Position numbers and translations under genes: made by a program
Notes under the pieces: generated by a model
What the model was told of the DNA's origin: nothing
The model's input: the letters and a program-made list of their open reading frames with translations, nothing else
Database searches by the model: none
In this document: in pieces, positions 36,942 through 48,712 of the stretch
Layout of the letters: the number at the start of each line of letters is the position of its first letter
Numbering within the stretch: the stretch's first letter is position 1
NCBI GenBank assembly: GCA_040900055.1
Contig: JBBDZU010000007.1
Location: forward strand, 25,831 to 89,830
DNA length: 64,000 bases
DNA from: Candidatus Saccharimonadales bacterium
Lineage (GTDB): Bacteria; Patescibacteriota; Saccharimonadia; Saccharimonadales; UBA10212
Direction of reading: 5' to 3'

Positions 36942-39912
36942 CTACAGCGTCGTTAGATTTTTGCCCAGAACCATCTTGGGCATATACCACTGTTCCGGGC
37001 GGAGCGTTAGCATTTGGCACTGAACAACTGCCACTGCCCGAGCAAATTACCGCCGAACTAGTCTTATTGTATATCGTGACTGTGCCGGAGCCGCCTAACC
37101 AGCTAAAGTTAGTTGTTCCGCCTGCGCTGCTGGCCTGGAGGTTGCTTGGCGGGCTCGCCGCCGTCGTAAAATTTACGGTTTTACTGTCGGTTGAATCATA
37201 TAAAACGCTATCAATAACCTGGGCGCTAACAGTTTGGGACCCACTTGCAGACGGGCTATAGTTGTGTGTGCATGAAGTAGCAGAGCCTGACGTAGAACAG
37301 GTTTTGATTTCTGTACCGCCTACAGAGAGCTTAATACTGCCGGGCGATAAGGGATGGGTGCCAGCCGAAGCCGTGCCGGTAACCGTGTAGGTGCCGTTGC
37401 CATTGTCCGAGACCGTCAAGGTTATGACCGGCCTTGAGTCACTACATTTATGGACATCGTCCGTAGACGAGGCCGTAGCGCTATTTTGGGCGCCTCCGGC
37501 CGTACCGAAGAAAGTGTCAATCGAGAAGTTCTCGGCGGCGCTGCTGCCAGCGGCAGTCTGGCGGGCTAAGCTTGGCGTACAGCTGGTAGCTAGCTTGCCG
37601 GAAACCTTGTCTATAGTTGACGATTTAGCTACCGCCCCGGTTTTAGGCTTATACCAGGCAGGGTATAAGTCATTGGCCGGGCTAGGCTCGATAGTAGATG
37701 TACCAACATGGCTCCTAACCACGTAAGCCGGCAGAACCTGCACACTAGACGGTCTTGTCCAGTTGACGGCTTTTTCGCCGCTATGTGCACCATTCATCCA
37801 GCCCTGCCAAATTGGCCTGGTCATGTTTTCCATAAAGCCGCTTAAGACCTTTTGCCTGCTATGGTAGCCAACCCAAACACCAGCGGCATATTTAGTTGAA
37901 AAGCCCATCATCCAACCGTCTTTACCCTCGGCGGTGGTTCCGGTTTTTACGCCAAAATTCCAACCACTATAGCGGTGGGGCTTAATGGACATATAACTAG
38001 CCCGGGGGTCGCTCATCATGTCGGCTACTATGTAGGCGCTATCTGGTCGGACTACCTGCTTTTTTTCTGGTTCTTTTTCTGGCTGTCGCCATTTGTAACG
38101 GCTTTTGCCGTTGCTCTCTTTAATTTCCAAGATGTAAGTCTGTTTTAAGTAAGTGCCCAGCCGCGAGATAGTAGCAAAGCCATTAACATGCTCGTCTAGC
38201 CGTAGATAAGCGCCGTCACCAATACCGGCCGAGGCGTAACATGGCTCTTCATCTGAGGCGGTAGCGTTTGCCACGTCCGTACCGGCCGCGTAGCATTTGT
38301 AGCCGCTCCTTAGTCCCATAGCTTCAGCAGTACTGATGGTTTTTTCGACGCCGTTTATAAGAATGGCTTTAACGGCCGGGACGTTTCTAGAGCCGCCTAA
38401 GGCGTAACGAAGCGGAAGGGGGCCAGGGAAGCGAAAGTCATAATCGGCCAAGCAGTTTCCGCCATCTTTTGGCCGCGCTGGGTTAGTGCAAGGATAGCCC
38501 GGAAGAGGCTGCTTAACATCGTAAAGCACCGATCCGGCACCGGCGTTGGTGCTATTTTCTATTAGTGATACGTAATCGTAGGGCTTAAAGCTAGAGCCTG
38601 GCGGTAAGGGTTGTCTGGCATAGTTTATTTGGCCATATTCCGGGTTAGTAAAATCTGATCCACCGACTAGGGCTACCATTTGACCGGTTTTAATATCTTG
38701 GGCGACAAAAGCCGCTACGTCGCCGCCCTGGTTTCTAACTTGGCGAAGGCCTTTATTGACTTGCTCTTCAGCTAAATCTTGCAATTTAGCATCTAGGGTG
38801 GTTATCACCTTCCAGGCACCGACCTCGGCAGTTTTTTCTTCCTCGATTTTCTTGGTTAGCTCATTTTTGGCGGCCAAGACAAAGTAAGGGTGCTTAATGC
38901 CAGCAAATTGGGTCTGTTGAGGCTGTACCTGGGCTAAAATATCGACTTTTTTGGCGGCCTCGGCCTCTTCTTTGGTGATTTTTTTCGTATCGGCCATAAC
39001 GTCCAAAATGTAGTGCATTCTGCCTATTAGAGCTTCTTCATTAAAAAACTCTTGGTTATAGGGCGAATAAAAAGATGGCGCCCTAGGAATGGCTGCCAGC
39101 ATAGCCGACTGGGCTAAGGTTAGGTCTTTAGCAGAAGTATGGAAATAATCAGAAGCAGCTACTTGCACGCCGTAGTCTAAGCCGCCGTAAGGGGCAGTAT
39201 TAAGATAGCCGGTTAAAATCTCTTCCTTGGTATAAGTACGCTCTAGCTCAATGGCCAGTATCAGCTCTTTAACTTTTAAGATTATGTTGCGCTTTTGGCC
39301 AAAATCCTGGTTAAGCTTAACTAGCTGTTGGGTGATGGTTGAGCCTCCTTGGGTTCCACCGCCGCCAAAAATGTTCTGAAAAGCCGCCCGCATAATAGCC
39401 TTGGCGTCAAAGCCGCGATGCTTAAAAAAGTCGCGGTCTTCTACGGCTACGGTGGCATCTTTAATGTATTGGGATATTTGGTCGCCCTCTACCGGCACGC
39501 GCTTAATAGTGTTGTAGTCTTGCCAGAGCAGAGTTTCTCCAGTACGGTCGTAATAACTAATGCTGCCGCCTAGCCGGTCGCCGGAGATATCGTGCAGGTT
39601 GGGCAAAAATTTTCTAAAGTAAGCAAAAACCGCCAAGGTTAGAACAAAAAAGACAAATATAGAAACCCCAGCGACTTTAAGGGCCATAATACCGCCCTCA
39701 CGGCTAAACCAATATTCCTTCATATGTCCTAAATTAAAACGCCAGGCCCAGCGTTTTAGGCGAGATTTAGGCAAAGACTTCATACGCTCCAGCTTGCGGC
39801 CTTTGGCTGCTTGACTAGCAGTCCAACGACCACCAAGTGTGCGGTGGGCGCGCAGCGAAGATGACCGGCGACCAGCACTTCTTAAGCGTCTTGCCGAGCG
39901 TTTAAATATCAT
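36934..39912 (-). CDS. class A penicillin-binding protein (glycosyltransferase + transpeptidase) with basic N-terminal and Cys/Ser/Thr-rich C-terminal extensions
   Basis: GT51 motifs (EDRDFFKHRGFD, GGSTITQQLVK), transpeptidase SSFKP and KTGT. 992 aa. Confidence 0.93.
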   Translation of the reverse strand: MIFKRSARRLRSAGRRSSSLRAHRTLGGRWTASQAAKGRKLERMKSLPKSRLKRWAWRFNLGHMKEYWFSREGGIMALKVAGVSIFVFFVLTLAVFAYFRKFLPNLHDISGDRLGGSISYYDRTGETLLWQDYNTIKRVPVEGDQISQYIKDATVAVEDRDFFKHRGFDAKAIMRAAFQNIFGGGGTQGGSTITQQLVKLNQDFGQKRNIILKVKELILAIELERTYTKEEILTGYLNTAPYGGLDYGVQVAASDYFHTSAKDLTLAQSAMLAAIPRAPSFYSPYNQEFFNEEALIGRMHYILDVMADTKKITKEEAEAAKKVDILAQVQPQQTQFAGIKHPYFVLAAKNELTKKIEEEKTAEVGAWKVITTLDAKLQDLAEEQVNKGLRQVRNQGGDVAAFVAQDIKTGQMVALVGGSDFTNPEYGQINYARQPLPPGSSFKPYDYVSLIENSTNAGAGSVLYDVKQPLPGYPCTNPARPKDGGNCLADYDFRFPGPLPLRYALGGSRNVPAVKAILINGVEKTISTAEAMGLRSGYKCYAAGTDVANATASDEEPCYASAGIGDGAYLRLDEHVNGFATISRLGTYLKQTYILEIKESNGKSRYKWRQPEKEPEKKQVVRPDSAYIVADMMSDPRASYMSIKPHRYSGWNFGVKTGTTAEGKDGWMMGFSTKYAAGVWVGYHSRQKVLSGFMENMTRPIWQGWMNGAHSGEKAVNWTRPSSVQVLPAYVVRSHVGTSTIEPSPANDLYPAWYKPKTGAVAKSSTIDKVSGKLATSCTPSLARQTAAGSSAAENFSIDTFFGTAGGAQNSATASSTDDVHKCSDSRPVITLTVSDNGNGTYTVTGTASAGTHPLSPGSIKLSVGGTEIKTCSTSGSATSCTHNYSPSASGSQTVSAQVIDSVLYDSTDSKTVNFTTAASPPSNLQASSAGGTTNFSWLGGSGTVTIYNKTSSAVICSGSGSCSVPNANAPPGTVVYAQDGSGQKSNDAVVS

Positions 39913-40016
39913 ATCCCTCTTTCATTGTTCAAAAACTATTATAGCAAAGCACTTTGTTTAGCAACGGTGGCAGCAGTGCAACATTAAGCTATACTGTTAC
40001 CAGAGAGATACCGTTT

Positions 40017-41321
40017 ATGAAATTAAGTGAAGAATTAGCTTGGCGCGGGTTAATAAAAGATAAAACATTCCAGGATGTTAGCTGGTTGGACGAACCAAAA
40101 ACCTTTTATCACGGCGTTGACGCCACTGCTGACAGCTTAACTGTAGGTAATTTGGCAGTGTTAATGCTGGCACGGCGTCTTATTGAACGGGGATGGAAAG
40201 CGGTTATCTTGATAGGAGGCGCGACTAGCTTAATAGGCGATCCAGGTGGAAAGATCGCGGAACGTGAACTTATATCGCGTGACGAAATTAAACGCAACTC
40301 CAATGCAATTAGGAACCAAATTAATCAGCTCTTTGATGGTCAAGATTTTACACTAGTAGATAATTATGATTGGTGGAGTAAGTCAGCGACAAACGAAGGG
40401 ATGCTATATCTCGATTTCCTGAGAGAATATGGCAAAAAGTTTTCTATGACCGAGCTCATGCAGAGGGAATTTGTAACTGAACGCATGGGTGGAGGGGCTT
40501 CGGGAATTAGTTATGCAGAGTTTAGCTACGGGCTTGTGCAGGCATACGATTATTATAGGTTAAGCCTGAAAAGAGGAGATAAGGATGGTCAAGATGCTGT
40601 TCTGCAGGTAGGCGGCTCTGATCAATGGAGCAATATGTTGCTGGGGGTGGCTTTGATCCGGAAAATCGACAACAAAGAAGGACATAACAAAGAAGCACAT
40701 GCTCTGAGCATGCCTTTAATTGTAGATAAAGCCACCGGCCAAAAATTCGGAAAAACAGAGGCTGGGGCAATTTGGCTGGATCCGCAAAAAACTACGAGTA
40801 CTCAGTTTTACCAATTCTGGGTAAATACCGACGATGCAGATGTGGAAGATTACCTCAAGATATTTACACTGCTACCCAAAGATAAAATTGAGCACTATGT
40901 AATGAAACATAAATCTGCTCCTGAACACAGATACGCCCAACAGCAGCTAGCCTACGAAGTCACAAGAACTGTTCATGGAGAAGAAGCCCTAGACCGTGCA
41001 GAAAGAGTGACAGATTTGATAAGGGGCCGAGACTCAAACCTGCTAGATATAAAAGAGGAAGATGTCTCTGACATAAGAAATGAGATTGCATACACGAAAG
41101 CCAAAATAGGAGACTCAATACAGGAAAAGATCGTTGAAGTGAAGCTGGCTGCATCCAAAACAGAAGCAAATAGATTGATGGCTAGTAACGCGATATCAAT
41201 CAATGGTATTAAAGTACCCCCCCGTGTACAGAGTTTTAAAAAATCAGATTTTATCAATGGGCGGCTGCTAATTCGTCGCGGTAAAGCTTACAAAGATTCT
41301 GCCTTGATAGAGTTAGAATAG
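40017..41321 (+). CDS. tyrS: tyrosine--tRNA ligase (HIGH motif replaced by TVGN)
   Basis: GVDATADSLTVGNL...IGGATSLIGDPGGK...GGSDQWSNM...KFGKTE and a C-terminal S4-like domain. I take the start as the ATG at 40017 (MKLSEELAWRG). Confidence 0.9.
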   Translation: MKLSEELAWRGLIKDKTFQDVSWLDEPKTFYHGVDATADSLTVGNLAVLMLARRLIERGWKAVILIGGATSLIGDPGGKIAERELISRDEIKRNSNAIRNQINQLFDGQDFTLVDNYDWWSKSATNEGMLYLDFLREYGKKFSMTELMQREFVTERMGGGASGISYAEFSYGLVQAYDYYRLSLKRGDKDGQDAVLQVGGSDQWSNMLLGVALIRKIDNKEGHNKEAHALSMPLIVDKATGQKFGKTEAGAIWLDPQKTTSTQFYQFWVNTDDADVEDYLKIFTLLPKDKIEHYVMKHKSAPEHRYAQQQLAYEVTRTVHGEEALDRAERVTDLIRGRDSNLLDIKEEDVSDIRNEIAYTKAKIGDSIQEKIVEVKLAASKTEANRLMASNAISINGIKVPPRVQSFKKSDFINGRLLIRRGKAYKDSALIELE

Positions 41322-42092
41322 ATGGCTAAAGTCGGTGTTAAAAAAAGGGTTCGAAAAGCTAACCAGTACGATGACCCAAGATATAACTATCAAGATTATT
41401 GGGCAGGCCGAGAATACGAGCACGCCGCTGAAGAGCTGGCGATTAAACGGTTGCTGCGGGGTAAGCGCTTTAAAAATGCGGTGGACGTTGGCGGCGGCTA
41501 TGGACGCCTAAGCGTTTTTCTTACCAAATTTGCTGAGAAAGTAACTTTGGCCGAACCCAGCCAACAGCAGCTGGACATCGCTAAAATCTACCTAAAAGGT
41601 AATAAAAAAGTTGAAATGAGGCGGCTACAGGCCGCCGACCTGCAATTTAAGGATGGTGCAATTGATCTAGCGGTGGTTGTTAGGGTATTACACCATCTGC
41701 CCGATCCTATGACCGAACTCAAAGAAATTGCCAGAGTTTTAAAACCGGGCGGCACATTTATTTTAGAATTTGCCAACGACGCCCATTTTCTTAATCGTAT
41801 CCGCTACGGCGTCCGTGGTAAACGAGTTCCGCAAAAACCGGTAGACATCAGCAGCTCGCAGGGTAAGGGCGAAATTGCTTTTGTGAACCACCACCCAAAA
41901 ACCATTATTAAAATGCTTCAAGACGCCGGTTTTGAAGTTGAGGCAGTGCTATCCGGCTCTAACTTACGCTCGCCGCTGCTCAAGCGGGTAGTCGGCAAGC
42001 GCCCCTTGCTGGTGCTGGAAAAAATCCTCCAGCCGCTGCTGGCCCCCATCTATTTTGGTCCGAGTATCTGGCTAAAACTTACAAAGAAATAG
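41322..42092 (+). CDS. class I SAM-dependent methyltransferase
   Basis: VDVGGGYGRLS motif I and LKPGGTFILEF. Confidence 0.8.
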   Translation: MAKVGVKKRVRKANQYDDPRYNYQDYWAGREYEHAAEELAIKRLLRGKRFKNAVDVGGGYGRLSVFLTKFAEKVTLAEPSQQQLDIAKIYLKGNKKVEMRRLQAADLQFKDGAIDLAVVVRVLHHLPDPMTELKEIARVLKPGGTFILEFANDAHFLNRIRYGVRGKRVPQKPVDISSSQGKGEIAFVNHHPKTIIKMLQDAGFEVEAVLSGSNLRSPLLKRVVGKRPLLVLEKILQPLLAPIYFGPSIWLKLTKK

Positions 42093-42312
42093 CTTCATGC
42101 ATAGGTATGCTACCCATGAAGCGTAGCGCACTTTCAGTTTCTTTTCTTATGGCTTTCTTATAGCCTCGTTCCGTTCGGAAGATCTCCCGTTCAACTACCG
42201 TACTATTTACGACCCCGTCATCGGCGATTGAACGGATAGATACTTCTGCTTGCCGTTGACCTTCATCCAGCGTGTATTCCTTTACACGTACGTATACTGG
42301 TCTCTCTTCCAT
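42079..42312 (-). CDS. hypothetical small protein (77 aa)
   Basis: ATG at 42312 lies 6 nt after a minus-strand TATTAT box, the same geometry as other genes here. Divergent from recG. No family recognised. Confidence 0.4.
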   Translation of the reverse strand: MEERPVYVRVKEYTLDEGQRQAEVSIRSIADDGVVNSTVVEREIFRTERGYKKAIRKETESALRFMGSIPMHEAISL

Positions 42313-42361
42313 GTTGTAATAATAGTTATCTTTTTAACATAACGCAACATATACTTTTACT

Positions 42362-44398
42362 GTGCAACTAAGAAAACAAATTACAGAACTTAAGGGTGTG
42401 GGAGATGAGGTAGCTAAAAAGCTTGGCGTCCTTGGCGTAAAGACTATTGGCGACCTAATCGAACATTACCCCAGACGTTACGAGGATTACTCCAATGTCA
42501 TGCCGGTCGCCGAGCTAAAACCTGGCCCTGTGACTCTAAAAGCCAAAATCGGCAGCACAAGCGGCCGTTATGTACGTAGGGGGTTACACATTACCGAGGC
42601 TATTGCTACAGACTCCACCGGAAGCGTCCGCCTGATATGGTTTAACCAGCCTTATCGAGCCGGAGCCATTAAGCCCAACACCGAATACTTTATAGCCGGC
42701 GAATATGCGCTTAGGCGCAGCCGCTTTTCTATACTTAATCCTTCGGTTGAGCTAGTTAGCAACTTTCCGATTAGTACGGCCAGGATTATTCCAATTTACC
42801 GAGAGACCAAGGGCCTAAAATCGGCAACTATTAGAAAACTAATCCGCCAGGCAATTAACGAGGTCAGCCTGTGGCCGGAGCACCTGCCGGAGTGGCTAAT
42901 TAAAGAGCACAAGCTGATAGATTATCAAAAAGCTAATTTAGAAATGCACTTTCCGTCTTCTGTTACTGCCTTGGCTAAAGCCAAAAACCGACTTGGATTT
43001 GAAGAAGTATTCGAGTTAAGCTTGGCGGCCTTATTAAACAAAGCGGAATTAACCAAGGAAAAAGGCCTGGCGATCTCGTTTAAGCAAAAACTGGCCCAAG
43101 ATTTTGTAGCCAAATTGCCTTTTAAGCTTACGGACGCCCAGCGCAAGGCAATTTGGCAAATTTACCAAGACCTTAGCAAAACCCAGCCAATGAACCGGCT
43201 GGTGGAGGGCGATGTAGGTTCGGGTAAAACCGTAGTGGCAGTCATGGCGGCACTGATGGCTATAGCCGAAGGCTTTCAAGTTGCCTTGATGGCCCCGACT
43301 GAAATTTTGGCTCGTCAACACGCCCAAACCCTAGGCCAACTACTGGCCAGTGTTGGCTATCAGGACAAGCTTGGTCTGCTAATAGGCAGTTTAAAGCCAA
43401 CCGACAAACAAGCTATGCAAAAAGCTATCGCCAAAGGTGAAATTGGCTTTATTGTTGGCACCCACGCTTTAATTGCCGAGAAAGTTGACATGCATCGCCT
43501 TGGGCTGATTATCATCGATGAGCAGCACCGTTTTGGCGTGGCCCAGCGCAAGAAGCTTCAAGCCAAGGCTGGCCACATGCCGCACGTATTGCATATATCG
43601 GCCACCCCAATACCACGAAGTTTAGCGCTAACACTTTACGGCGAGTTGGATATTTCCATATTGGACCAAATGCCGGAAGGTCGGCAGTCTATAATCACTA
43701 AAATTTGCTCGCCAAATTCTCGTATGACTTTATATGCCGACATGAATAGAGAGCTGGATGAAGGGCGTCAGATGTTTATAGTCTGCCCTCTAATTACAGA
43801 TACCGAACTTAGTGGGGGGTTAAGTGTTGAAGAAGTTTATGAACGGCTAAGCAAGCGAGACTTTAAAAATAGGAGGGTGGGCTTGCTACATGGAAAGATG
43901 AAGGCAGACGAGAAGGAATCTGTCATGCAGAAGTTTTTGAATAGGGACTACGATATTTTAGTTAGCACCACAGTCATAGAGGTAGGAGTAGATGTGCCTA
44001 ATGCTTCAATAATGTTAGTAGAGGGCGCCGAGCGGTTTGGCCTGGCCCAAATCCACCAGCTGCGTGGGCGTGTCGGACGCGGGGCGCATCAAAGTTTTTG
44101 TTACCTAATGCTTAGTGACAGCCAAGCACCTAGCCAACGTCTAAATGCGCTAGAGACTATGAGCGACGGCTTTAAACTAGCTGAGCTTGATTTGCGCTTA
44201 CGCGGCCCAGGCGCCATTTACGGCACATCTCAGCACGGTGCCTTAGATCTTAGGGTGGCTAATTTAACAGATGTAAAACTTATTTCTGCGGCCAGAGGAG
44301 CGGCCAAACAATTTATCGACAAAAAAGAGAGCTTATCCAAATACCCTCACCTAAGTGCACGAGTCAGTGCCCTTCGCGCCGTAACCAACCTGAATTAG
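42362..44398 (+). CDS. recG: ATP-dependent DNA helicase RecG
   Basis: Wedge/OB N-terminus, GDVGSGKT, DEQHRFG and QLRGRVGRG helicase motifs. GTG start 6 nt after TATACT. Confidence 0.95.
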   Translation: MQLRKQITELKGVGDEVAKKLGVLGVKTIGDLIEHYPRRYEDYSNVMPVAELKPGPVTLKAKIGSTSGRYVRRGLHITEAIATDSTGSVRLIWFNQPYRAGAIKPNTEYFIAGEYALRRSRFSILNPSVELVSNFPISTARIIPIYRETKGLKSATIRKLIRQAINEVSLWPEHLPEWLIKEHKLIDYQKANLEMHFPSSVTALAKAKNRLGFEEVFELSLAALLNKAELTKEKGLAISFKQKLAQDFVAKLPFKLTDAQRKAIWQIYQDLSKTQPMNRLVEGDVGSGKTVVAVMAALMAIAEGFQVALMAPTEILARQHAQTLGQLLASVGYQDKLGLLIGSLKPTDKQAMQKAIAKGEIGFIVGTHALIAEKVDMHRLGLIIIDEQHRFGVAQRKKLQAKAGHMPHVLHISATPIPRSLALTLYGELDISILDQMPEGRQSIITKICSPNSRMTLYADMNRELDEGRQMFIVCPLITDTELSGGLSVEEVYERLSKRDFKNRRVGLLHGKMKADEKESVMQKFLNRDYDILVSTTVIEVGVDVPNASIMLVEGAERFGLAQIHQLRGRVGRGAHQSFCYLMLSDSQAPSQRLNALETMSDGFKLAELDLRLRGPGAIYGTSQHGALDLRVANLTDVKLISAARGAAKQFIDKKESLSKYPHLSARVSALRAVTNLN

Positions 44399-44458
44399 TT
44401 GGTAGTTTATTGTTGGTAGTTTTTAGATCTACAAACTACCAACTACAAACTGTAAACT
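44397..44458. repeat. 62-bp imperfect palindrome: four inverted heptads, AGATCT, four direct heptads (ACAAACT family)
   Basis: AGTTGGT AGTTTAT TGTTGGT AGTTTTT | AGATCT | ACAAACT ACCAACT ACAAACT GTAAACT. The last heptad contains TAAACT, 6 nt before the rsmD GTG. Confidence 0.75.
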
Positions 44459-44464
44459 GTTCTT

Positions 44465-44998
44465 GTGAGGATAATTACTGGATATTTAAAGGGACGGGAA
44501 TTTAGAACTCCACATAGTCATCGAACGCATCCTATGAGCGACAAGGTACGGGGCGCGCTATTTAACATTTTGGGCGATATTGGAGGCCTCATCCTTTTGG
44601 ATGCCTTTGCTGGCAGCGGCGCCCTAAGCCTAGAAGCCGTTAGCCGCGGCGCAAAAGAAGTTGTAGCTATCGATAAAGATAGCCCGGCTCACAAAATTCT
44701 AGAGCAAAACGTCAAAGAGCTTGGAGTTAGCGATCGCATAAAAATAATTCGTGCTAACAGCTCTGGTTGGAGCCAGAATAATCAAGATAAAAAGTTTGAT
44801 TTAATGTTTTTAGATCCGCCCTATGACCAGCTTCAGCTACCGCTCCTAAAAACATTCGCTGAAAGACATGTTAAATCAGGCGGCATTTTGGTACTTTCGT
44901 ACCCCGGAAAATCGACAGCCCCAGAATTTGAAAATTTTAAAATCATCGCCAATAAAAACTACGGTGACTCCCAGCTCGTTTTTTGTCGAAAGGTATAA
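44465..44998 (+). CDS. rsmD: 16S rRNA (guanine966-N2)-methyltransferase RsmD
   Basis: RIITG...R.T.D.VR.ALFN, DAFAGSGAL and LDPPY motifs. 177 aa. Confidence 0.9.
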   Translation: MRIITGYLKGREFRTPHSHRTHPMSDKVRGALFNILGDIGGLILLDAFAGSGALSLEAVSRGAKEVVAIDKDSPAHKILEQNVKELGVSDRIKIIRANSSGWSQNNQDKKFDLMFLDPPYDQLQLPLLKTFAERHVKSGGILVLSYPGKSTAPEFENFKIIANKNYGDSQLVFCRKV

Positions 44999-45005
44999 TT
45001 TAGAT

Positions 45006-45563
45006 ATGTCAAAGCCTTTTGCGATAGTTTTCGCCGGAGTGCCTGGCAGCTCCAAAAGCATAATTGCCTATTACCTGTCGGGTAAATTTGGCATACCGAT
45101 TTTCTCTAATGATGGGCTTCGGTACGAAGTCAAGGAAGATTTACTCATAAATAACTTGATTCTCAAGGAAGACTTACTAGCCGAAGGCATAAACGCTCCA
45201 AAAGCTTTAGCCGAATATGAAAAACGCCTTTCGCAAAGGCGTGAAGAGCTTTTGGGTACTGGCCGGCCGATTATCTTCGACGGCAGCATTGATCGCCGCT
45301 GGGCTGAAGCTAGGGAGCAGCTGCTTAAACATCAATATAGCTGGTTCATGATAAGCATTAACCTTTCTCGCGAATTTTTGGAAAACTTATTTTCGGCAAC
45401 CAATCGAGCAGCCTTTATCCCCAAACTGGATAAGTACTTCGGGCAGCACGAGAGATTCCTAGAAAAATATGGTCATGAAGTAAGTATTGAAATTAATGAC
45501 AAAAGCTTTAAGGATCGCCTAAAAGTATCCGCCGAAGCCCTACAGAACTTTATTGACAAATAA
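45006..45563 (+). CDS. P-loop NTPase/kinase-like protein (AAA_33 / zeta-toxin-like fold)
   Basis: I take the start as the ATG at 45006 (MSKPFAIVFAGVPGSSKS, a Walker A variant) and note IIFDGS (Walker B-like). The listed 44868 start would overlap rsmD by 131 nt. Confidence 0.65.
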   Translation: MSKPFAIVFAGVPGSSKSIIAYYLSGKFGIPIFSNDGLRYEVKEDLLINNLILKEDLLAEGINAPKALAEYEKRLSQRREELLGTGRPIIFDGSIDRRWAEAREQLLKHQYSWFMISINLSREFLENLFSATNRAAFIPKLDKYFGQHERFLEKYGHEVSIEINDKSFKDRLKVSAEALQNFIDK

Positions 45564-45583
45564 ATGGTAAATTGTCATAACAA

Positions 45584-45697
45584 ATGAAGAATCTTCTACA
45601 AGTTCCACATATTGAAGCTCCGGCGCTTGCAGGGCTATCGATCGTGGCAGATAAAAATTATGGCGACGCCCAGCTAGCCTTCTACCGAAAGCTATAA
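45584..45697 (+). pseudogene. orphan duplicate of the rsmD 3' end
   Basis: Translates to ...SIVADKNYGDAQLAFYRKL*, compared with the genuine RsmD C-terminus ...KIIANKNYGDSQLVFCRKV*. No RsmD body precedes it. Confidence 0.7.
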
Positions 45698-45784
45698 TAA
45701 TAGGCTAGAGGCTCGTGCTAGAGAGAAGTAACTGAAGTCAGGTGCTGGCAAGGAGTTTCTGAAGTCACTATAATTGATGAGGAT

Positions 45785-45869
45785 GGGGATGTGGTGAAAT
45801 TGGTATACACGCTAGTTTTAGGAACTAGTGCCTTCGGGCGTGTAGGTTCGAGTCCTATCATCCCCACCA
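45785..45869 (+). tRNA. tRNA-Leu (anticodon UAG), CCA encoded
   Basis: Acceptor GGGGATG/CATCCCC, D arm GTG..CAC, anticodon stem CTAGT/ACTAG with loop TTTAGGA, long variable arm (TGCCTTCGGGCGT), T arm GTAGG-TTCGAGT-CCTAT, then ACCA. TATAAT lies 10 nt upstream. Confidence 0.9.
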
Positions 45870-45908
45870 TTTATTGATTAAAATATACTTTAGTGGTATA
45901 ATATAACT

Positions 45909-46673
45909 ATGGAATTAGTTTCTCCTGCTGCGAGCGAGATAGGACTACGAACAAAACCAGTCGAGCTTATAAGGAAGATTATACGGAACCCTGGCTTCCT
46001 GCTTAGGGCTCCGGAGAGAATTAAAGATATATCACGCTGGCGACAAGTCTACGAGATTATTGACGAGTATAGTGACGCTCATCCTGGTCTAACCTTTCTT
46101 CAAATAGGAGCAAACGATGGAGTCAGAAGTGATCCCGTCCACTAAAGAATAGTTACAAAAAACTGGCACGGCGTTTTAGTAGAGCCTGAACCTCAATCTT
46201 TTGAAGAGCTAAAGCAAAACTACGCGGGCTCGGAGGGCCTAGTATTTGTACAAGCTGCCGTAACTGATAGGGATGGCCAGGTCGACCTCCTAAGATTTCA
46301 AAGCGCTGGTCCAGATAACGCCGGGATTGAATCAGCATCGGTTGACCCAGCAGCATTCGCAAAGTCAGCCAAGCTACTTGGACTTAAAAACGGCGCAGCA
46401 CTTTCAGAGACCATACAGGTGCCAGCGGTCCGACTACCTACCTTAATAAGTGAGCATAATTTAGATATTTTTGGTTTTCTAATTGTAGATGCCGAAGGAA
46501 GTGATTTGGTCATACTCAAGGACCTACTGGGAACGCAGGTTCGGCCAGGCATGATTCTTTATGAGAACCTAATGATGACTCCAAGTGAACACGATGCATT
46601 AAATGATGAGTTTCACAGCGAAGGCTATAGATCTCTGGCCCTAAGCCAAGATACTTTTCTGTACAGAAGCTAA
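45909..46673 (+). pseudogene. FkbM-family methyltransferase interrupted by an in-frame TAA (46143-46145)
   Basis: Same frame on both sides of the stop: ...LQIGANDGVRSDPVH*RIVTKNWHGVLVEPEPQSFEELKQNY...FLIVDAEGSDLVIL. This fits the FkbM pattern (GAN.G, EP.P..F..L, iD.EG.E). Confidence 0.65.
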
Positions 46674-47410
46674 CTTGATTGTTTTTTGAGTTCTTCGTAG
46701 CGCAGGGCCGGTGCAACCATATAAATTGAACTCAGTGCGAAGGCCACCAGCGGCCCAATTATGGGGAAGAAGTTGGTAATGCCTAGCAAAATCGAAACTA
46801 AAATAACACTATAGATGGCCCAGGCGTGCCCGCGGGTCATGTTCCAACTACCGCGAAAGGCGCTGGCAATAGAACCTTTTTGTTCAACCATAATGTAAGG
46901 TACTAAGAACAGCCGCCAAAGCAGGATAACACCTGGCAAAATAAGCATTAGAAAACCTATAAAAATCGCCAGAATAAGCAAGATGTAGGTGCCGATCAAC
47001 TTAAGCCACAGCCATTTGCTTACAAATTCTGCCCATATTCCTGACAACTTTAGGCTATTCCCCTGAGCTCCCCGCACCACAGCAATTGTTACTAAAAGGA
47101 AAAGGACAAAATACAAAATGCCAATGAAGCTAAAGAATAAAGCGCTGCCGGTAGCATAAGAGCCGGTGTCTACATTCGGACCAAAGATGCCGTTCACAAA
47201 AATGCTGCCCCAACCGCGCGCCTTTTCACCGTCATCAGATATTCGGGCCAAGGTTTCCCATAGGGCAAAAAGTCCGCTAATGGAGAAAAGCACCATAAAA
47301 ACCTCGAAGTTGCGCCTAATAATTTGGTAGCTTTTACCAAAAAGGTCAAAGGCGCTGGTTGTTTGAGTCTGGGTGGATTTGGCTGCTGACATTTTGCTTT
47401 CTCTCGACAT
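46670..47410 (-). CDS. hypothetical polytopic membrane protein
   Basis: 246 aa with about five or six hydrophobic segments. No family recognised. Confidence 0.6.
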   Translation of the reverse strand: MSRESKMSAAKSTQTQTTSAFDLFGKSYQIIRRNFEVFMVLFSISGLFALWETLARISDDGEKARGWGSIFVNGIFGPNVDTGSYATGSALFFSFIGILYFVLFLLVTIAVVRGAQGNSLKLSGIWAEFVSKWLWLKLIGTYILLILAIFIGFLMLILPGVILLWRLFLVPYIMVEQKGSIASAFRGSWNMTRGHAWAIYSVILVSILLGITNFFPIIGPLVAFALSSIYMVAPALRYEELKKQSS

Positions 47411-47470: not shown

Positions 47471-48712
47471 ATGTCTCTGTCTACCCAACCGTATAAGGGC
47501 GCCCGTGATTTTTATCCGGAAGATAAACGCCTACAAAAATACATTTTTGACAAGCTGCGGCAAGTGGTAGAGAGTTTTGGCTACCAGGAATACGACGCCC
47601 CTATTTTAGAGCCGCTGGATATTTATTTAGCCAAGACCGGCGAAGAAATTGTTAACGAGCAACTCTACTCTTTTGTAGACCGCGGTGGGCGGCGGGTGGC
47701 CATTAGGCCGGAGATGACTCCATCTGTTAGCCGTATGGTTGCCGGCCGACGTCAAGAACTGGCCTATCCATTGCGCTGGTATAGCATTGCCAATTTTTGG
47801 CGTTATGAACGACCACAGCGCGGTCGCTTGCGCGAACACTACCAACTAAACGCCGATATTTTTGGAGTGGAAGGGGTTGCGGCTGACGCCGAAATCATCC
47901 AAGTGGCTGATTCTATCCTCAAATCACTAGGAGCTAAGGCCGAGATGTATAGAATCAACATCAACAGTCGGGTAGCTATGATTCAAGCAATGAAAGAGTT
48001 TGGTCTAGAGGGAACTGAGCTGAAAGCCGTATACAAACTGGTCGATAAAATGCCAAAACTGACTGACGAAGATTTTAAAAAAGTATTGTCAGAAAATTTG
48101 TCCGCGGAAAAAGCCACTAAGCTGCTGAAATATCTAGATAATAATCAACCGCCGGAAAAGGTCGACAGGTTACTATCCCTACTAAAAAGTGTTGGCGTAA
48201 CAAGCGCTACTTACGAGCCGAGTGTAGTTCGTGGGCTTGAATATTACACCGACATTGTTTTTGAGGTGTTCGACACTAACCCCGAGAATGCTAGGGCGTT
48301 GTTCGGTGGCGGGCGCTACGACGGGTTGGTGGGGCTGTTTGGGGTAGAGCCGCTACCAACCGTAGGTTTTGGTATGGGTGACGTAACGCTGCAAAACTTT
48401 TTAGAGGCGCATAAACTTTTGCCGAAGCTACAAGTCGAAACCGATGCCATTGTGGTATTAATTGGCGATTTGTACGAATCTGCCCAAAGCCTGCTGGCGC
48501 AGCTGCGTGAGTCCGGCTTAAAACTGGCCGTAGACAGCAGCGGCCGTAAACTAGATGCTCAGCTTAAAAGTGCTGATAAGTCTGGCGTCAAGCACGTAAT
48601 TTTTATTGGCGAAGCCGAACTAAAATCCAAAAAGCTAAAACTTAAAAATTTACAGACCGGGGATGAGAGGCAGCTGAGCGCAGAAGAATTGGTCAAGGCT
48701 CTTCAAAGCTGA
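47471..48712 (+). CDS. hisS: histidine--tRNA ligase
   Basis: GARDFYPED, RPEMTPSVSRM, WRYERPQRGRLREHYQ and GGGRYDGL motifs. ATG 7 nt after TATAAT. Confidence 0.95.
   Translation: MSLSTQPYKGARDFYPEDKRLQKYIFDKLRQVVESFGYQEYDAPILEPLDIYLAKTGEEIVNEQLYSFVDRGGRRVAIRPEMTPSVSRMVAGRRQELAYPLRWYSIANFWRYERPQRGRLREHYQLNADIFGVEGVAADAEIIQVADSILKSLGAKAEMYRININSRVAMIQAMKEFGLEGTELKAVYKLVDKMPKLTDEDFKKVLSENLSAEKATKLLKYLDNNQPPEKVDRLLSLLKSVGVTSATYEPSVVRGLEYYTDIVFEVFDTNPENARALFGGGRYDGLVGLFGVEPLPTVGFGMGDVTLQNFLEAHKLLPKLQVETDAIVVLIGDLYESAQSLLAQLRESGLKLAVDSSGRKLDAQLKSADKSGVKHVIFIGEAELKSKKLKLKNLQTGDERQLSAEELVKALQS

Follow-up and report, generated by a model that had tools for sequence, protein, structure and literature searches.

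Some islands enter a tRNA gene or a protein gene at its 3' end and restore that end, as SCCmec does in rlmH/orfX. C-terminal displacement, with the orphaned 3' ends that it leaves behind, was reportedly set out by Jackson et al. in 2009. Displacement of this kind, with orphaned 3' ends, is found in the effector-immunity loci of the Rhs, contact-dependent inhibition (CDI) and type VI secretion system (T6SS) families (Kirchberger et al. 2017, PMC5361080). Moreover, homology-facilitated illegitimate recombination (HFIR), as outlined in one report (PMC3240628), integrates linear DNA that is homologous to its target at one end and illegitimately joined at the other, and Saccharibacteria are presented as naturally competent in two others (PMC10187176, PMC10633639). 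Here, a locus to be compared with these systems is described. It lies in a 64,000-nucleotide stretch (the window, by which the whole stretch is meant) of a Candidatus Saccharimonadales metagenome-assembled genome (MAG; contig JBBDZU010000007.1), where the gene order is recG, rsmD, an open reading frame (ORF) of 185 aa, an ORF of 37 codons, tRNA-Leu(TAG), an FkbM-type gene, a membrane protein gene and hisS. The 185-aa ORF encodes a P-loop protein (NCBI locus tag WD877_02255), and the 37-codon ORF contains a second, orphan rsmD 3' end, which is the subject of this work.

The orphan rsmD 3' end

An earlier note on this DNA had described the P-loop gene as a cassette placed between two diverged copies of the rsmD 3' end. 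The coordinates given there for the end of rsmD, the P-loop gene and the orphan segment all hold (Table 1), and the resemblance of the two ends is above chance, with 26 residues of the orphan aligning to the resident C-terminus at a Smith-Waterman BLOSUM62 score of 76; shuffled sequences gave at most 47 (peptide, 5000 shuffles) and 49 (DNA in six frames, 2000 shuffles). Over the final 18 residues the identity is 12/18, one more than the 11/18 counted previously, and the weaker similarity upstream, put then at about 15 codons, is present with an extent of 11-12 codons by hidden Markov model (HMM; to 45605) and possibly of 17 (to 45587). In the family HMM, constructed from 43 relatives with the window genome excluded, positions 147-176 of 177 match the orphan at 45605-45694 with 20 bits (independent E-value, 1.4e-7). 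The orphan is confirmed as a genuine rsmD 3' end, comprising the last 30 codons and the stop.

Of the last 26 codons, the two ends have 6 in common, another 8 show synonymous differences alone, and the remaining 12 encode amino acid replacements that are for the most part conservative; 8 of the 14 shared amino acids are encoded by different codons. The differences are distributed as 8, 6 and 15 among the first, second and third codon positions (binomial p of 0.03 for the third-position excess), no indels are observed, and both ends close with TAA at the same codon. At the DNA level, the identity is 62% over 78-90 nt (a divergence of 38/90), the longest identical run being 7 nt. A C-terminal HMM of 162 relatives gives 60.1 bits for the orphan, at the 36th percentile of real C-termini, and 56.6 bits for the resident end, at the 25th percentile of real genes. 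When the resident end was mutated to 38/90 divergence in a simulation of neutral decay, the maximum score was 26.7 bits, and none of 20,000 runs reached that of the orphan. Also, the orphan is nearer to the family consensus than the resident end at three residues, S->A, C->Y and N->D (GDAQL, FYRK). The simulations and this closeness to the consensus rule out an in-situ duplication followed by decay. Because the orphan scores as a working C-terminus that no decay simulation matches, one of the copies came from another lineage, a point on which the earlier note is borne out. The comparison supports that both ends diverged as working genes in separate lineages and, to judge from its sequence, the orphan is part of an rsmD that worked in another lineage and fell silent only recently.

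The same arrangement is found in an independent Logan assembly (SRR27977660, locus L048), which is 100% identical to positions 39006-45869 of the window, orphan included, and for this reason an artifact specific to one assembler is unlikely. A chimera between co-occurring Saccharimonadales strains could be suspected in a MAG, the more so as the L048 contig stops exactly at the final base of tRNA-Leu. However, the left joint at 45564-45605 falls in non-conserved sequence, with no shared k-mer for a mis-join, and the Logan assembly reproduces it base for base, which makes a chimera hardly credible. The L048 contig end hints at strain variation or an assembly break directly 3' of tRNA-Leu.

The resident rsmD matches PF03602 over positions 1-181 of 182 (E 4e-44, 150.8 bits, cutoff 24) and TIGR00095 with 121.2 bits (curated cutoff 117.5). 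Its product carries a Cys (TGT, 44984-44986) in place of a near-invariant family Tyr, giving FCRKV versus FYRK, and a Ser in GDSQL where most family members have Ala (GDAQL). The last 39 nt of the gene are 90% identical to the DNA of L049, with similar values for L003 and L006. A chimeric resident rsmD with a breakpoint near the 3' end was considered and ruled out, since the similarity of L003 and L006 as well denotes motif conservation.

The rsmD-P-loop pair and the direction of the exchange

For the comparison with relatives, a one-genome-per-species rsmD scan gave 47 loci, more were added by exact look-ups, and 62 loci were fetched. A six-frame HMM scan covered 56 of these 62 loci and, the window and the identical L048 excepted, detected a second rsmD piece in none. 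L057, L059 and L061, checked by tblastn only, have a single rsmD piece each, and a DNA-profile nhmmer scan of the spacers following the P-loop gene in relatives detected no orphan. Then, no relative covered by these scans shares the two-copy arrangement, and the orphan is seen in them only in the window and L048.

The P-loop gene has a different distribution. It is found after rsmD in at least nine lineages (the window, L001, L028, L049, L053, L056, L057, L059 and L061), with a gap of 7-9 nt in the window, L001, L056 and L061, an overlap in L057 and intervening ORFs in L049, L053 and L059. The L028 gene corresponds to a more distant form, and in L025 the P-loop gene lies after the tRNA. The junction AGGTATAAT-N7-9-ATG is kept in three divergent lineages (the window, L056 and L061), and the lineages with this junction, AGGTATAA-N7-9-ATG, represent both P-loop subclades. 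Among the P-loop-bearing lineages, rsmD identity is 55-68%. Because the adjacency spans nine lineages and both subclades, the others being orphan-free, the arrival of the P-loop gene would long predate the undecayed orphan; an orphan left by that arrival would be as old as the lineages themselves and could not look undecayed. From these comparisons, the P-loop gene appears to be an old neighbor of rsmD and no recent cassette, so that its recent insertion between two rsmD ends, as first proposed, is not supported. A further reading would take the rsmD end and the P-loop gene as an integrase-less mobile cassette bearing a replacement rsmD 3' end, the orphan being the first intermediate caught. 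The stop codon would double as the -10 box of the next gene, resident ends would be displaced repeatedly, and movement would occur between Saccharibacteria and high-GC bacteria, possibly their hosts. We consider this reading improbable.

Another possibility is a relic of site-specific integration, in which a tyrosine or serine recombinase would have inserted a small element whose attP was similar to the end of rsmD, the integrase being lost later. This would account for a target end duplicated around a gene; furthermore, serine recombinases are found 3' of tRNA-Leu in L036 and L033, and Replic_Relax domains in two ORFs of the slot downstream of it. However, no integrase or recombinase domain is present in the ORFs between recG and hisS (rsmD, the P-loop gene, the FkbM pseudogene and the membrane protein), and neither att core direct repeats nor a downstream copy of the tRNA 3' end were found in this region of the window. 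The longest identical run between the two copies is of 7 nt, the recombinases of the relatives are on the opposite side of the tRNA, the rsmD-P-loop junction is kept in divergent lineages that have no second copy, and the P-loop gene has no homologue in plasmid or phage collections. An integration resembling that of tRNA islands, which the earlier note had inferred, finds no backing in these results, and a relic of this type is quite improbable.

The explanation that we favor, tentatively and with somewhat less than even confidence, is that a foreign rsmD end, together with its leader, was captured in front of tRNA-Leu through homologous recombination at one side only. The donor would be another Saccharimonadales lineage with the common arrangement, in which rsmD abuts tRNA-Leu, and a short piece of its chromosome would have been taken up. 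The right end of this piece would have paired with the resident tRNA-Leu as a homologous anchor, and its left end would have entered the spacer that follows the resident P-loop gene by an illegitimate joint, a process corresponding to HFIR with "trapping" of foreign DNA. The trapped piece would consist of the last 30 rsmD codons of the donor, the stop codon and the tRNA leader, whereas rsmD and the P-loop gene would be an old co-inherited pair, the latter not being cargo. What we infer here is the mechanism, its polarity and that the DNA was taken up through natural competence.

The tRNA side is favored for the anchor because, at about 38% rsmD divergence, only tRNA-Leu gives exact blocks above 28 nt. 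Between 40 and 50 kb of the window, it is the sole source of such blocks shared with relatives (48 nt), those of coding genes being of 25 nt at most. If a fragment composed of a donor rsmD end, leader and tRNA-Leu pairs through its tRNA and is illegitimately joined on the upstream side, the observed order results exactly, whereas an anchor to the left of the P-loop gene would have found hardly any identity. Also, as in HFIR, the foreign segment is contiguous with a conserved anchor, the orphan stop being 87 nt before tRNA-Leu. At the other side, the segment 45564-45604 is similar neither to rsmD nor to the sequence following the P-loop gene in any relative.

The polarity could be the reverse, with a native orphan and an imported rsmD (or its 3' part) plus P-loop gene. 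In such a C-terminal displacement, the ancestor would have had an empty site, with an orphan-type rsmD abutting tRNA-Leu; the fragment, from a lineage with the P-loop gene, would have taken the place of most of this native rsmD and pushed its last 30 codons downstream; this is approximately the model of the earlier note minus the integrase. The order of the elements fits, namely a working end, a cargo and a displaced end beside an intact tRNA-Leu with its own leader, and no state is commoner across the order than the empty site. Moreover, the P-loop gene is patchy and has been transferred between phyla (contigs of 65.6% GC hold copies with 63-64% identity), its type in the window differs from that of the nearest rsmD relatives, and HFIR has been invoked to explain the orphaned 3' ends recorded at Rhs/T6SS loci (PMC5361080). 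However, the import of rsmD and the P-loop gene needs a left crossover in poorly matching coding DNA, that is, in rsmD or recG, at about 38% DNA divergence and with identity blocks of at most 25 nt; if the right-hand anchor were the tRNA, the native rsmD end would be deleted, not preserved. In addition, the resident rsmD, tRNA and membrane protein point to L056, which is the nearest in rsmD (68%) and in tRNA-Leu and the second in the membrane protein (48%, versus 53% for L062), and which itself carries the rsmD-P-loop pair with a resident-type C-terminus ending in GDSQLVFYRKV. As a backbone phylogeny for the polarity, these three genes weakly favor L056. Also, the resident C-terminus tracks its own N-terminus and the orphan does not: in the variable 16 aa of the C-terminus, the identity that relatives show to the resident end follows N-terminus identity (rho 0.30, p 1e-4), whereas for the orphan the same comparison gives a rho of 0.09 (p 0.23), and relatives with an orphan-like "GL-type" end are more distant in the rsmD N-terminus (59.9 versus 63.9%). 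This suggests that the orphan, rather than the working end, is more probably the foreign copy, contrary to the foreign replacement end and displaced old end first supposed. The reverse direction is the less likely of the two.

Several points weigh against the trapping of a foreign end. The parents were not found, the closest proteins among 5.8 billion being 68% identical for rsmD and 67% for the P-loop protein. The donor hunts were negative as well: two degenerate DNA patterns gave 0 matches in metagenome contigs, a protein search with the orphan peptide was empty, and the best match of the orphan is the rsmD of L055/P0158, with 21/25 aa and 74% DNA identity over 85 nt. The clade is star-like, with the window on a long branch and recG at 72-77% identity to a dozen lineages without a clear nearest relative, which makes the congruence argument for the polarity weak. 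The tRNA anchor, of 85 nt, is short in comparison with those of HFIR experiments, roughly 150-200 nt. In addition, the event gives no obvious benefit, whereas the reverse polarity would explain a gene gain. Finally, the P-loop gene of the window is of the insertion type (as in L049, L053 and L057), and those of its nearest rsmD relatives, L056 and L001, are of the non-insertion type; this incongruence between P-loop and rsmD types is mild, and the P-loop gene could have been exchanged.

Gene turnover around tRNA-Leu and the P-loop family

In about 55 related loci, the recG-rsmD-tRNA-Leu(TAG)-...-hisS backbone is conserved across Saccharimonadales, and both flanks of tRNA-Leu are variable. The empty site, with the rsmD stop 7-40 nt from tRNA-Leu, which had been suggested as a check, is observed in about 20 relatives. 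All of them are distant, and the nearest relatives (at most 68%) have the P-loop gene without the orphan; at the species level, the exact look-up for an empty site yields the same genome only (L048). Elsewhere, the slot between rsmD and the tRNA is occupied by the P-loop gene, a membrane-protein gene, a NUDIX-phosphatase fusion (four loci), a sigma-factor-like protein, MurT/GatD or several unknowns, and the slot from the tRNA to hisS measures 0.1-5.1 kb. These data support that rsmD-tRNA-Leu-hisS is a gene-turnover hotspot across the order, in line with the integration hotspot proposed before.

The recombinases of the relatives are large serine recombinases situated directly 3' of tRNA-Leu (L036, 6629-8167, and L033, 3782-5245, both on the minus strand), with Resolvase and Recombinase domains and, in L036 alone, a Zn ribbon; the L036 ORF overlaps the tRNA-Leu end by 19 nt. 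Besides the two ORFs with Replic_Relax domains, one PemK toxin is found in the downstream slot of relatives. A UPF0259-like membrane-protein gene is located between rsmD and tRNA-Leu in L007, L013, L026, L029, L031 and L034, whereas the window and many other loci have it on the far side of tRNA-Leu. In L041 and L059 the tRNA-Leu is inverted, and in L059 it overlaps the P-loop 3' end. Its position relative to the neighboring genes thus appears to be itself unstable. In L049, L053 and L056, 90-250 nt of unrelated DNA lie between a conserved post-stop motif, beside the upstream gene, and the tRNA. No recognizable gene fragments are present in these independently expanded spacers, which suggest that the spot upstream of tRNA-Leu may have been repeatedly disturbed and would agree with recurrent events like the trapping favored above.

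The FkbM gene after tRNA-Leu is broken, as described earlier, in the sense that a single in-frame TAA (46143-46145) cuts an otherwise continuous ORF, whose read-through translation covers positions 1-172 of 173 of PF05050 (E 2e-17). The TAA is due to a sequencing error or else to an inactivation of very recent date, and no FkbM homologue occupies this position in any relative compared.

Table 1 Features of the locus, with positions in the window
Feature	Position	Strand	Evidence	Remark
recG	42362-44398			
rsmD, resident, full-length 16S rRNA m2G966 methyltransferase	44465-44998	+	PF03602, TIGR00095	C-terminus NYGDSQLVFCRKV, then stop
rsmD-stop/P-loop-start junction GGTATAAT-N7-ATG	44992-45008	+		Repeat family D1
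P-loop kinase-fold gene, 185 aa	45006-45563	+	Homologues, AlphaFold2, Foldseek	Walker A variant GVPGSSKS
Segment between P-loop stop and orphan	45564-45604	+		Would hold the illegitimate joint, placed within 45564-45605
37-codon ORF containing the orphan	45584-45697	+		
Orphan rsmD 3' end, 30 codons plus TAA	45605-45697	+	Family HMM	PHIEAPALAGLSIVADKNYGDAQLAFYRKL
Orphan-to-tRNA spacer	45698-45784	+		27-nt tandem repeat, promoter-like site
tRNA-Leu(TAG)	45785-45869	+	ARAGORN, Rfam RF00005	
FkbM-type methyltransferase gene, in-frame TAA	45909-46673	+	PF05050 on read-through	Variable cargo 3' of tRNA-Leu
Membrane protein, UPF0259/GPDPase_memb-like	46670-47410	-		Backbone gene
hisS	47471-48712			

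The tRNA-Leu is closest to that of L056, with 4 differences, all of them in the variable loop, and a shared T-arm. The spacer that precedes it, 45698-45784, shows no similarity to the spacers of relatives. It contains an imperfect 27-nt tandem repeat with 77% identity (45715-45740 / 45742-45767) and a promoter-like CTGGCA-18-TATAAT at 45745-45774, whose -35-like CTGGCA belongs to the second repeat copy. In 15 of 21 empty-site relatives, TAAAATAC (a stop plus AATA(C)) is present 7-40 nt before tRNA-Leu, at the rsmD stop (L002, L003, L008, L015, L017, L021, L023-L025, L027, L033, L035-L037 and L040). A stop plus AATA(C) is also found at the P-loop stop of L049 (992-1005), L053 (5565-5578) and L028 (2375-2380), and AATACATCTGTTCT is common to L049, L053 and L003. 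Across the order, TAAAATAC looks like a tRNA-Leu -10 box that would overlap the stop of the upstream gene.

The orphan also ends in such a box, cTATAAT, 88 nt before tRNA-Leu, and it could be asked whether it is an ancient displaced end retained by selection as the carrier of the tRNA-Leu promoter. The position of TAAAATAC in the empty-site relatives and its presence after the P-loop stop in L049, L053 and L028 would agree with this. Nevertheless, selection on a promoter would not keep 30 protein-grade codons, the other P-loop-bearing lineages are orphan-free, and the promoter-like site at 45745-45774 is closer to the tRNA, so that retention for this role is very improbable. A putative -10-like box likewise overlaps the stop of rsmD, with 7 nt between it and the P-loop ATG. 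The pattern GGTATAAT-N7-9-ATG precedes the P-loop gene in the window, L056 (1988-2008) and L061 (3139-3157), and it is also observed ahead of FkbM (window 45895-45911). This suggests leaderless or near-leaderless transcripts, for which these boxes would act as promoters.

With regard to the P-loop protein, 48 homologues were identified, all but two at most 67% identical, the exceptions being the window's own protein and a fragment (57% query coverage, 58% identity). A profile search of 1.84 billion cluster representatives gave 73 relatives at E ≤ 1e-30 and 585 at E ≤ 1e-3. Invariant elements are GVPGSSK, D36, R39, E41, E44, D45, D92-x-S-x-DR-x-W99, H148, D165 and R171, and the Walker A motif GVPGSSK[ST] shows no variation across 38 homologues. 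The AlphaFold2 model (predicted local distance difference test, pLDDT, 90.3) has a P-loop nucleoside monophosphate kinase fold. The best PDB folds are the putative kinase 2rhm, adenylate kinase, gluconokinase, polynucleotide kinase and APS kinase (TM-scores 0.5-0.66), with a Foldseek probability of 1.00 for the adenylate kinase, gluconokinase and polynucleotide kinase structures. Of the zeta toxin, AAA_33 or gluconate-kinase-like identities advanced earlier, a kinase fold is upheld, and membership of AAA_33 or Zeta_toxin is not: AAA_33 scores 15.3 bits, below the 27-bit cutoff, there is no Zeta_toxin match, and AAA_33, AAA_18 or Zeta_toxin are reached only by distant second-tier relatives. No NCBIfam model was matched above its cutoff and no PADLOC entry was matched. 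A defense, toxin or mobile-element gene was rejected on the basis of the absence of PADLOC, plasmid and phage matches. Based on the model, the protein belongs to an uncharacterized kinase-fold family outside the curated ones and is most probably a small-molecule or nucleotide kinase.

The 63-64% identical homologues in the high-GC contigs (L050 1033-2359, L051 and L052 4578-5931) are surrounded by genes typical of free-living bacteria. In the three of them, the next gene after that of the P-loop protein encodes a membrane protein of 253 aa, in which WxWTGFxGNxLWDW is repeated three times and the mutual identity is 74%. Because the neighbors of these copies differ, the two genes form a module that has moved between phyla. 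In a neighbor-joining tree, the high-GC copies are nested inside a subclade marked by an 11-aa insert, which also includes the window, L049, L053 and L057. This insert (KEDLL...KEDLL) corresponds to a 33-nt internal tandem duplication (45130-45145 / 45163-45178) and forms a low-confidence loop in the model (residues 58-62, pLDDT below 50).

For the surroundings, no anomaly in GC or skew is observed over 42-49 kb of the window, and the tRNA is the sole Rfam call besides weak miRNA-like hairpin matches. Such matches are all that Rfam gives for a loopless palindrome of 24+24 nt, 88% complementary, between the recG stop and the rsmD start (44404-44451), which may be a terminator or an operator.

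Comparison with known systems

What the locus shows is a genuine, though unexceptional, scar left by DNA exchange in a turnover hotspot, not the footprint of a new cassette. It represents a statistically solid case of inter-lineage exchange that left a readable scar in a genome of the Candidate Phyla Radiation (Saccharibacteria), being a further example of recombination scars already known and not a new kind of system. If the exchange was anchored in the tRNA, tRNA genes could promote gene flux between very divergent Patescibacteria without an integrase, simply as the only sequence conserved enough to recombine. This would agree with the natural competence recently shown for the group, as far as the reports cited above describe it.

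Like islands that insert at 3' ends, the locus has as its target the end of a gene for an rRNA methyltransferase, located beside a tRNA; two copies of that end bracket DNA, and relatives carry recombinase-bearing elements at this same tRNA. However, here the integrase and identical core repeats are absent, the copies are only 62-68% identical, and the bracketed P-loop gene is ancestral in the clade.

The similarity to the C-terminal displacement of Rhs/CDI/T6SS loci is closer in layout, because a full-length gene and a linked gene are followed by a 5'-truncated orphan of a different allele, and HFIR is the mechanism proposed there too (PMC5361080). Nonetheless, rsmD encodes a housekeeping methyltransferase and no polymorphic toxin, its C-terminus is the most conserved and not the variable part, and one orphan is present instead of an array. 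Also, the linked gene is not recent, its junction with rsmD being found in divergent orphan-free lineages, and the P-loop gene is an old neighbor in place of a fresh cargo or immunity gene.

Finally, with HFIR the locus shares foreign DNA beside a highly conserved sequence, tRNA-Leu, that could act as a one-sided anchor, no need for a recombinase or repeats, and a host phylum that is naturally competent according to the report mentioned above (PMC10633639). The joint at the other end would be free of homology. It differs in that the event is deduced from the sequence of one genome and with an anchor of 85 nt. Moreover, the trapped DNA would be a fragment of the neighboring housekeeping gene as found in another lineage, which is the sole reason why it can be recognized.

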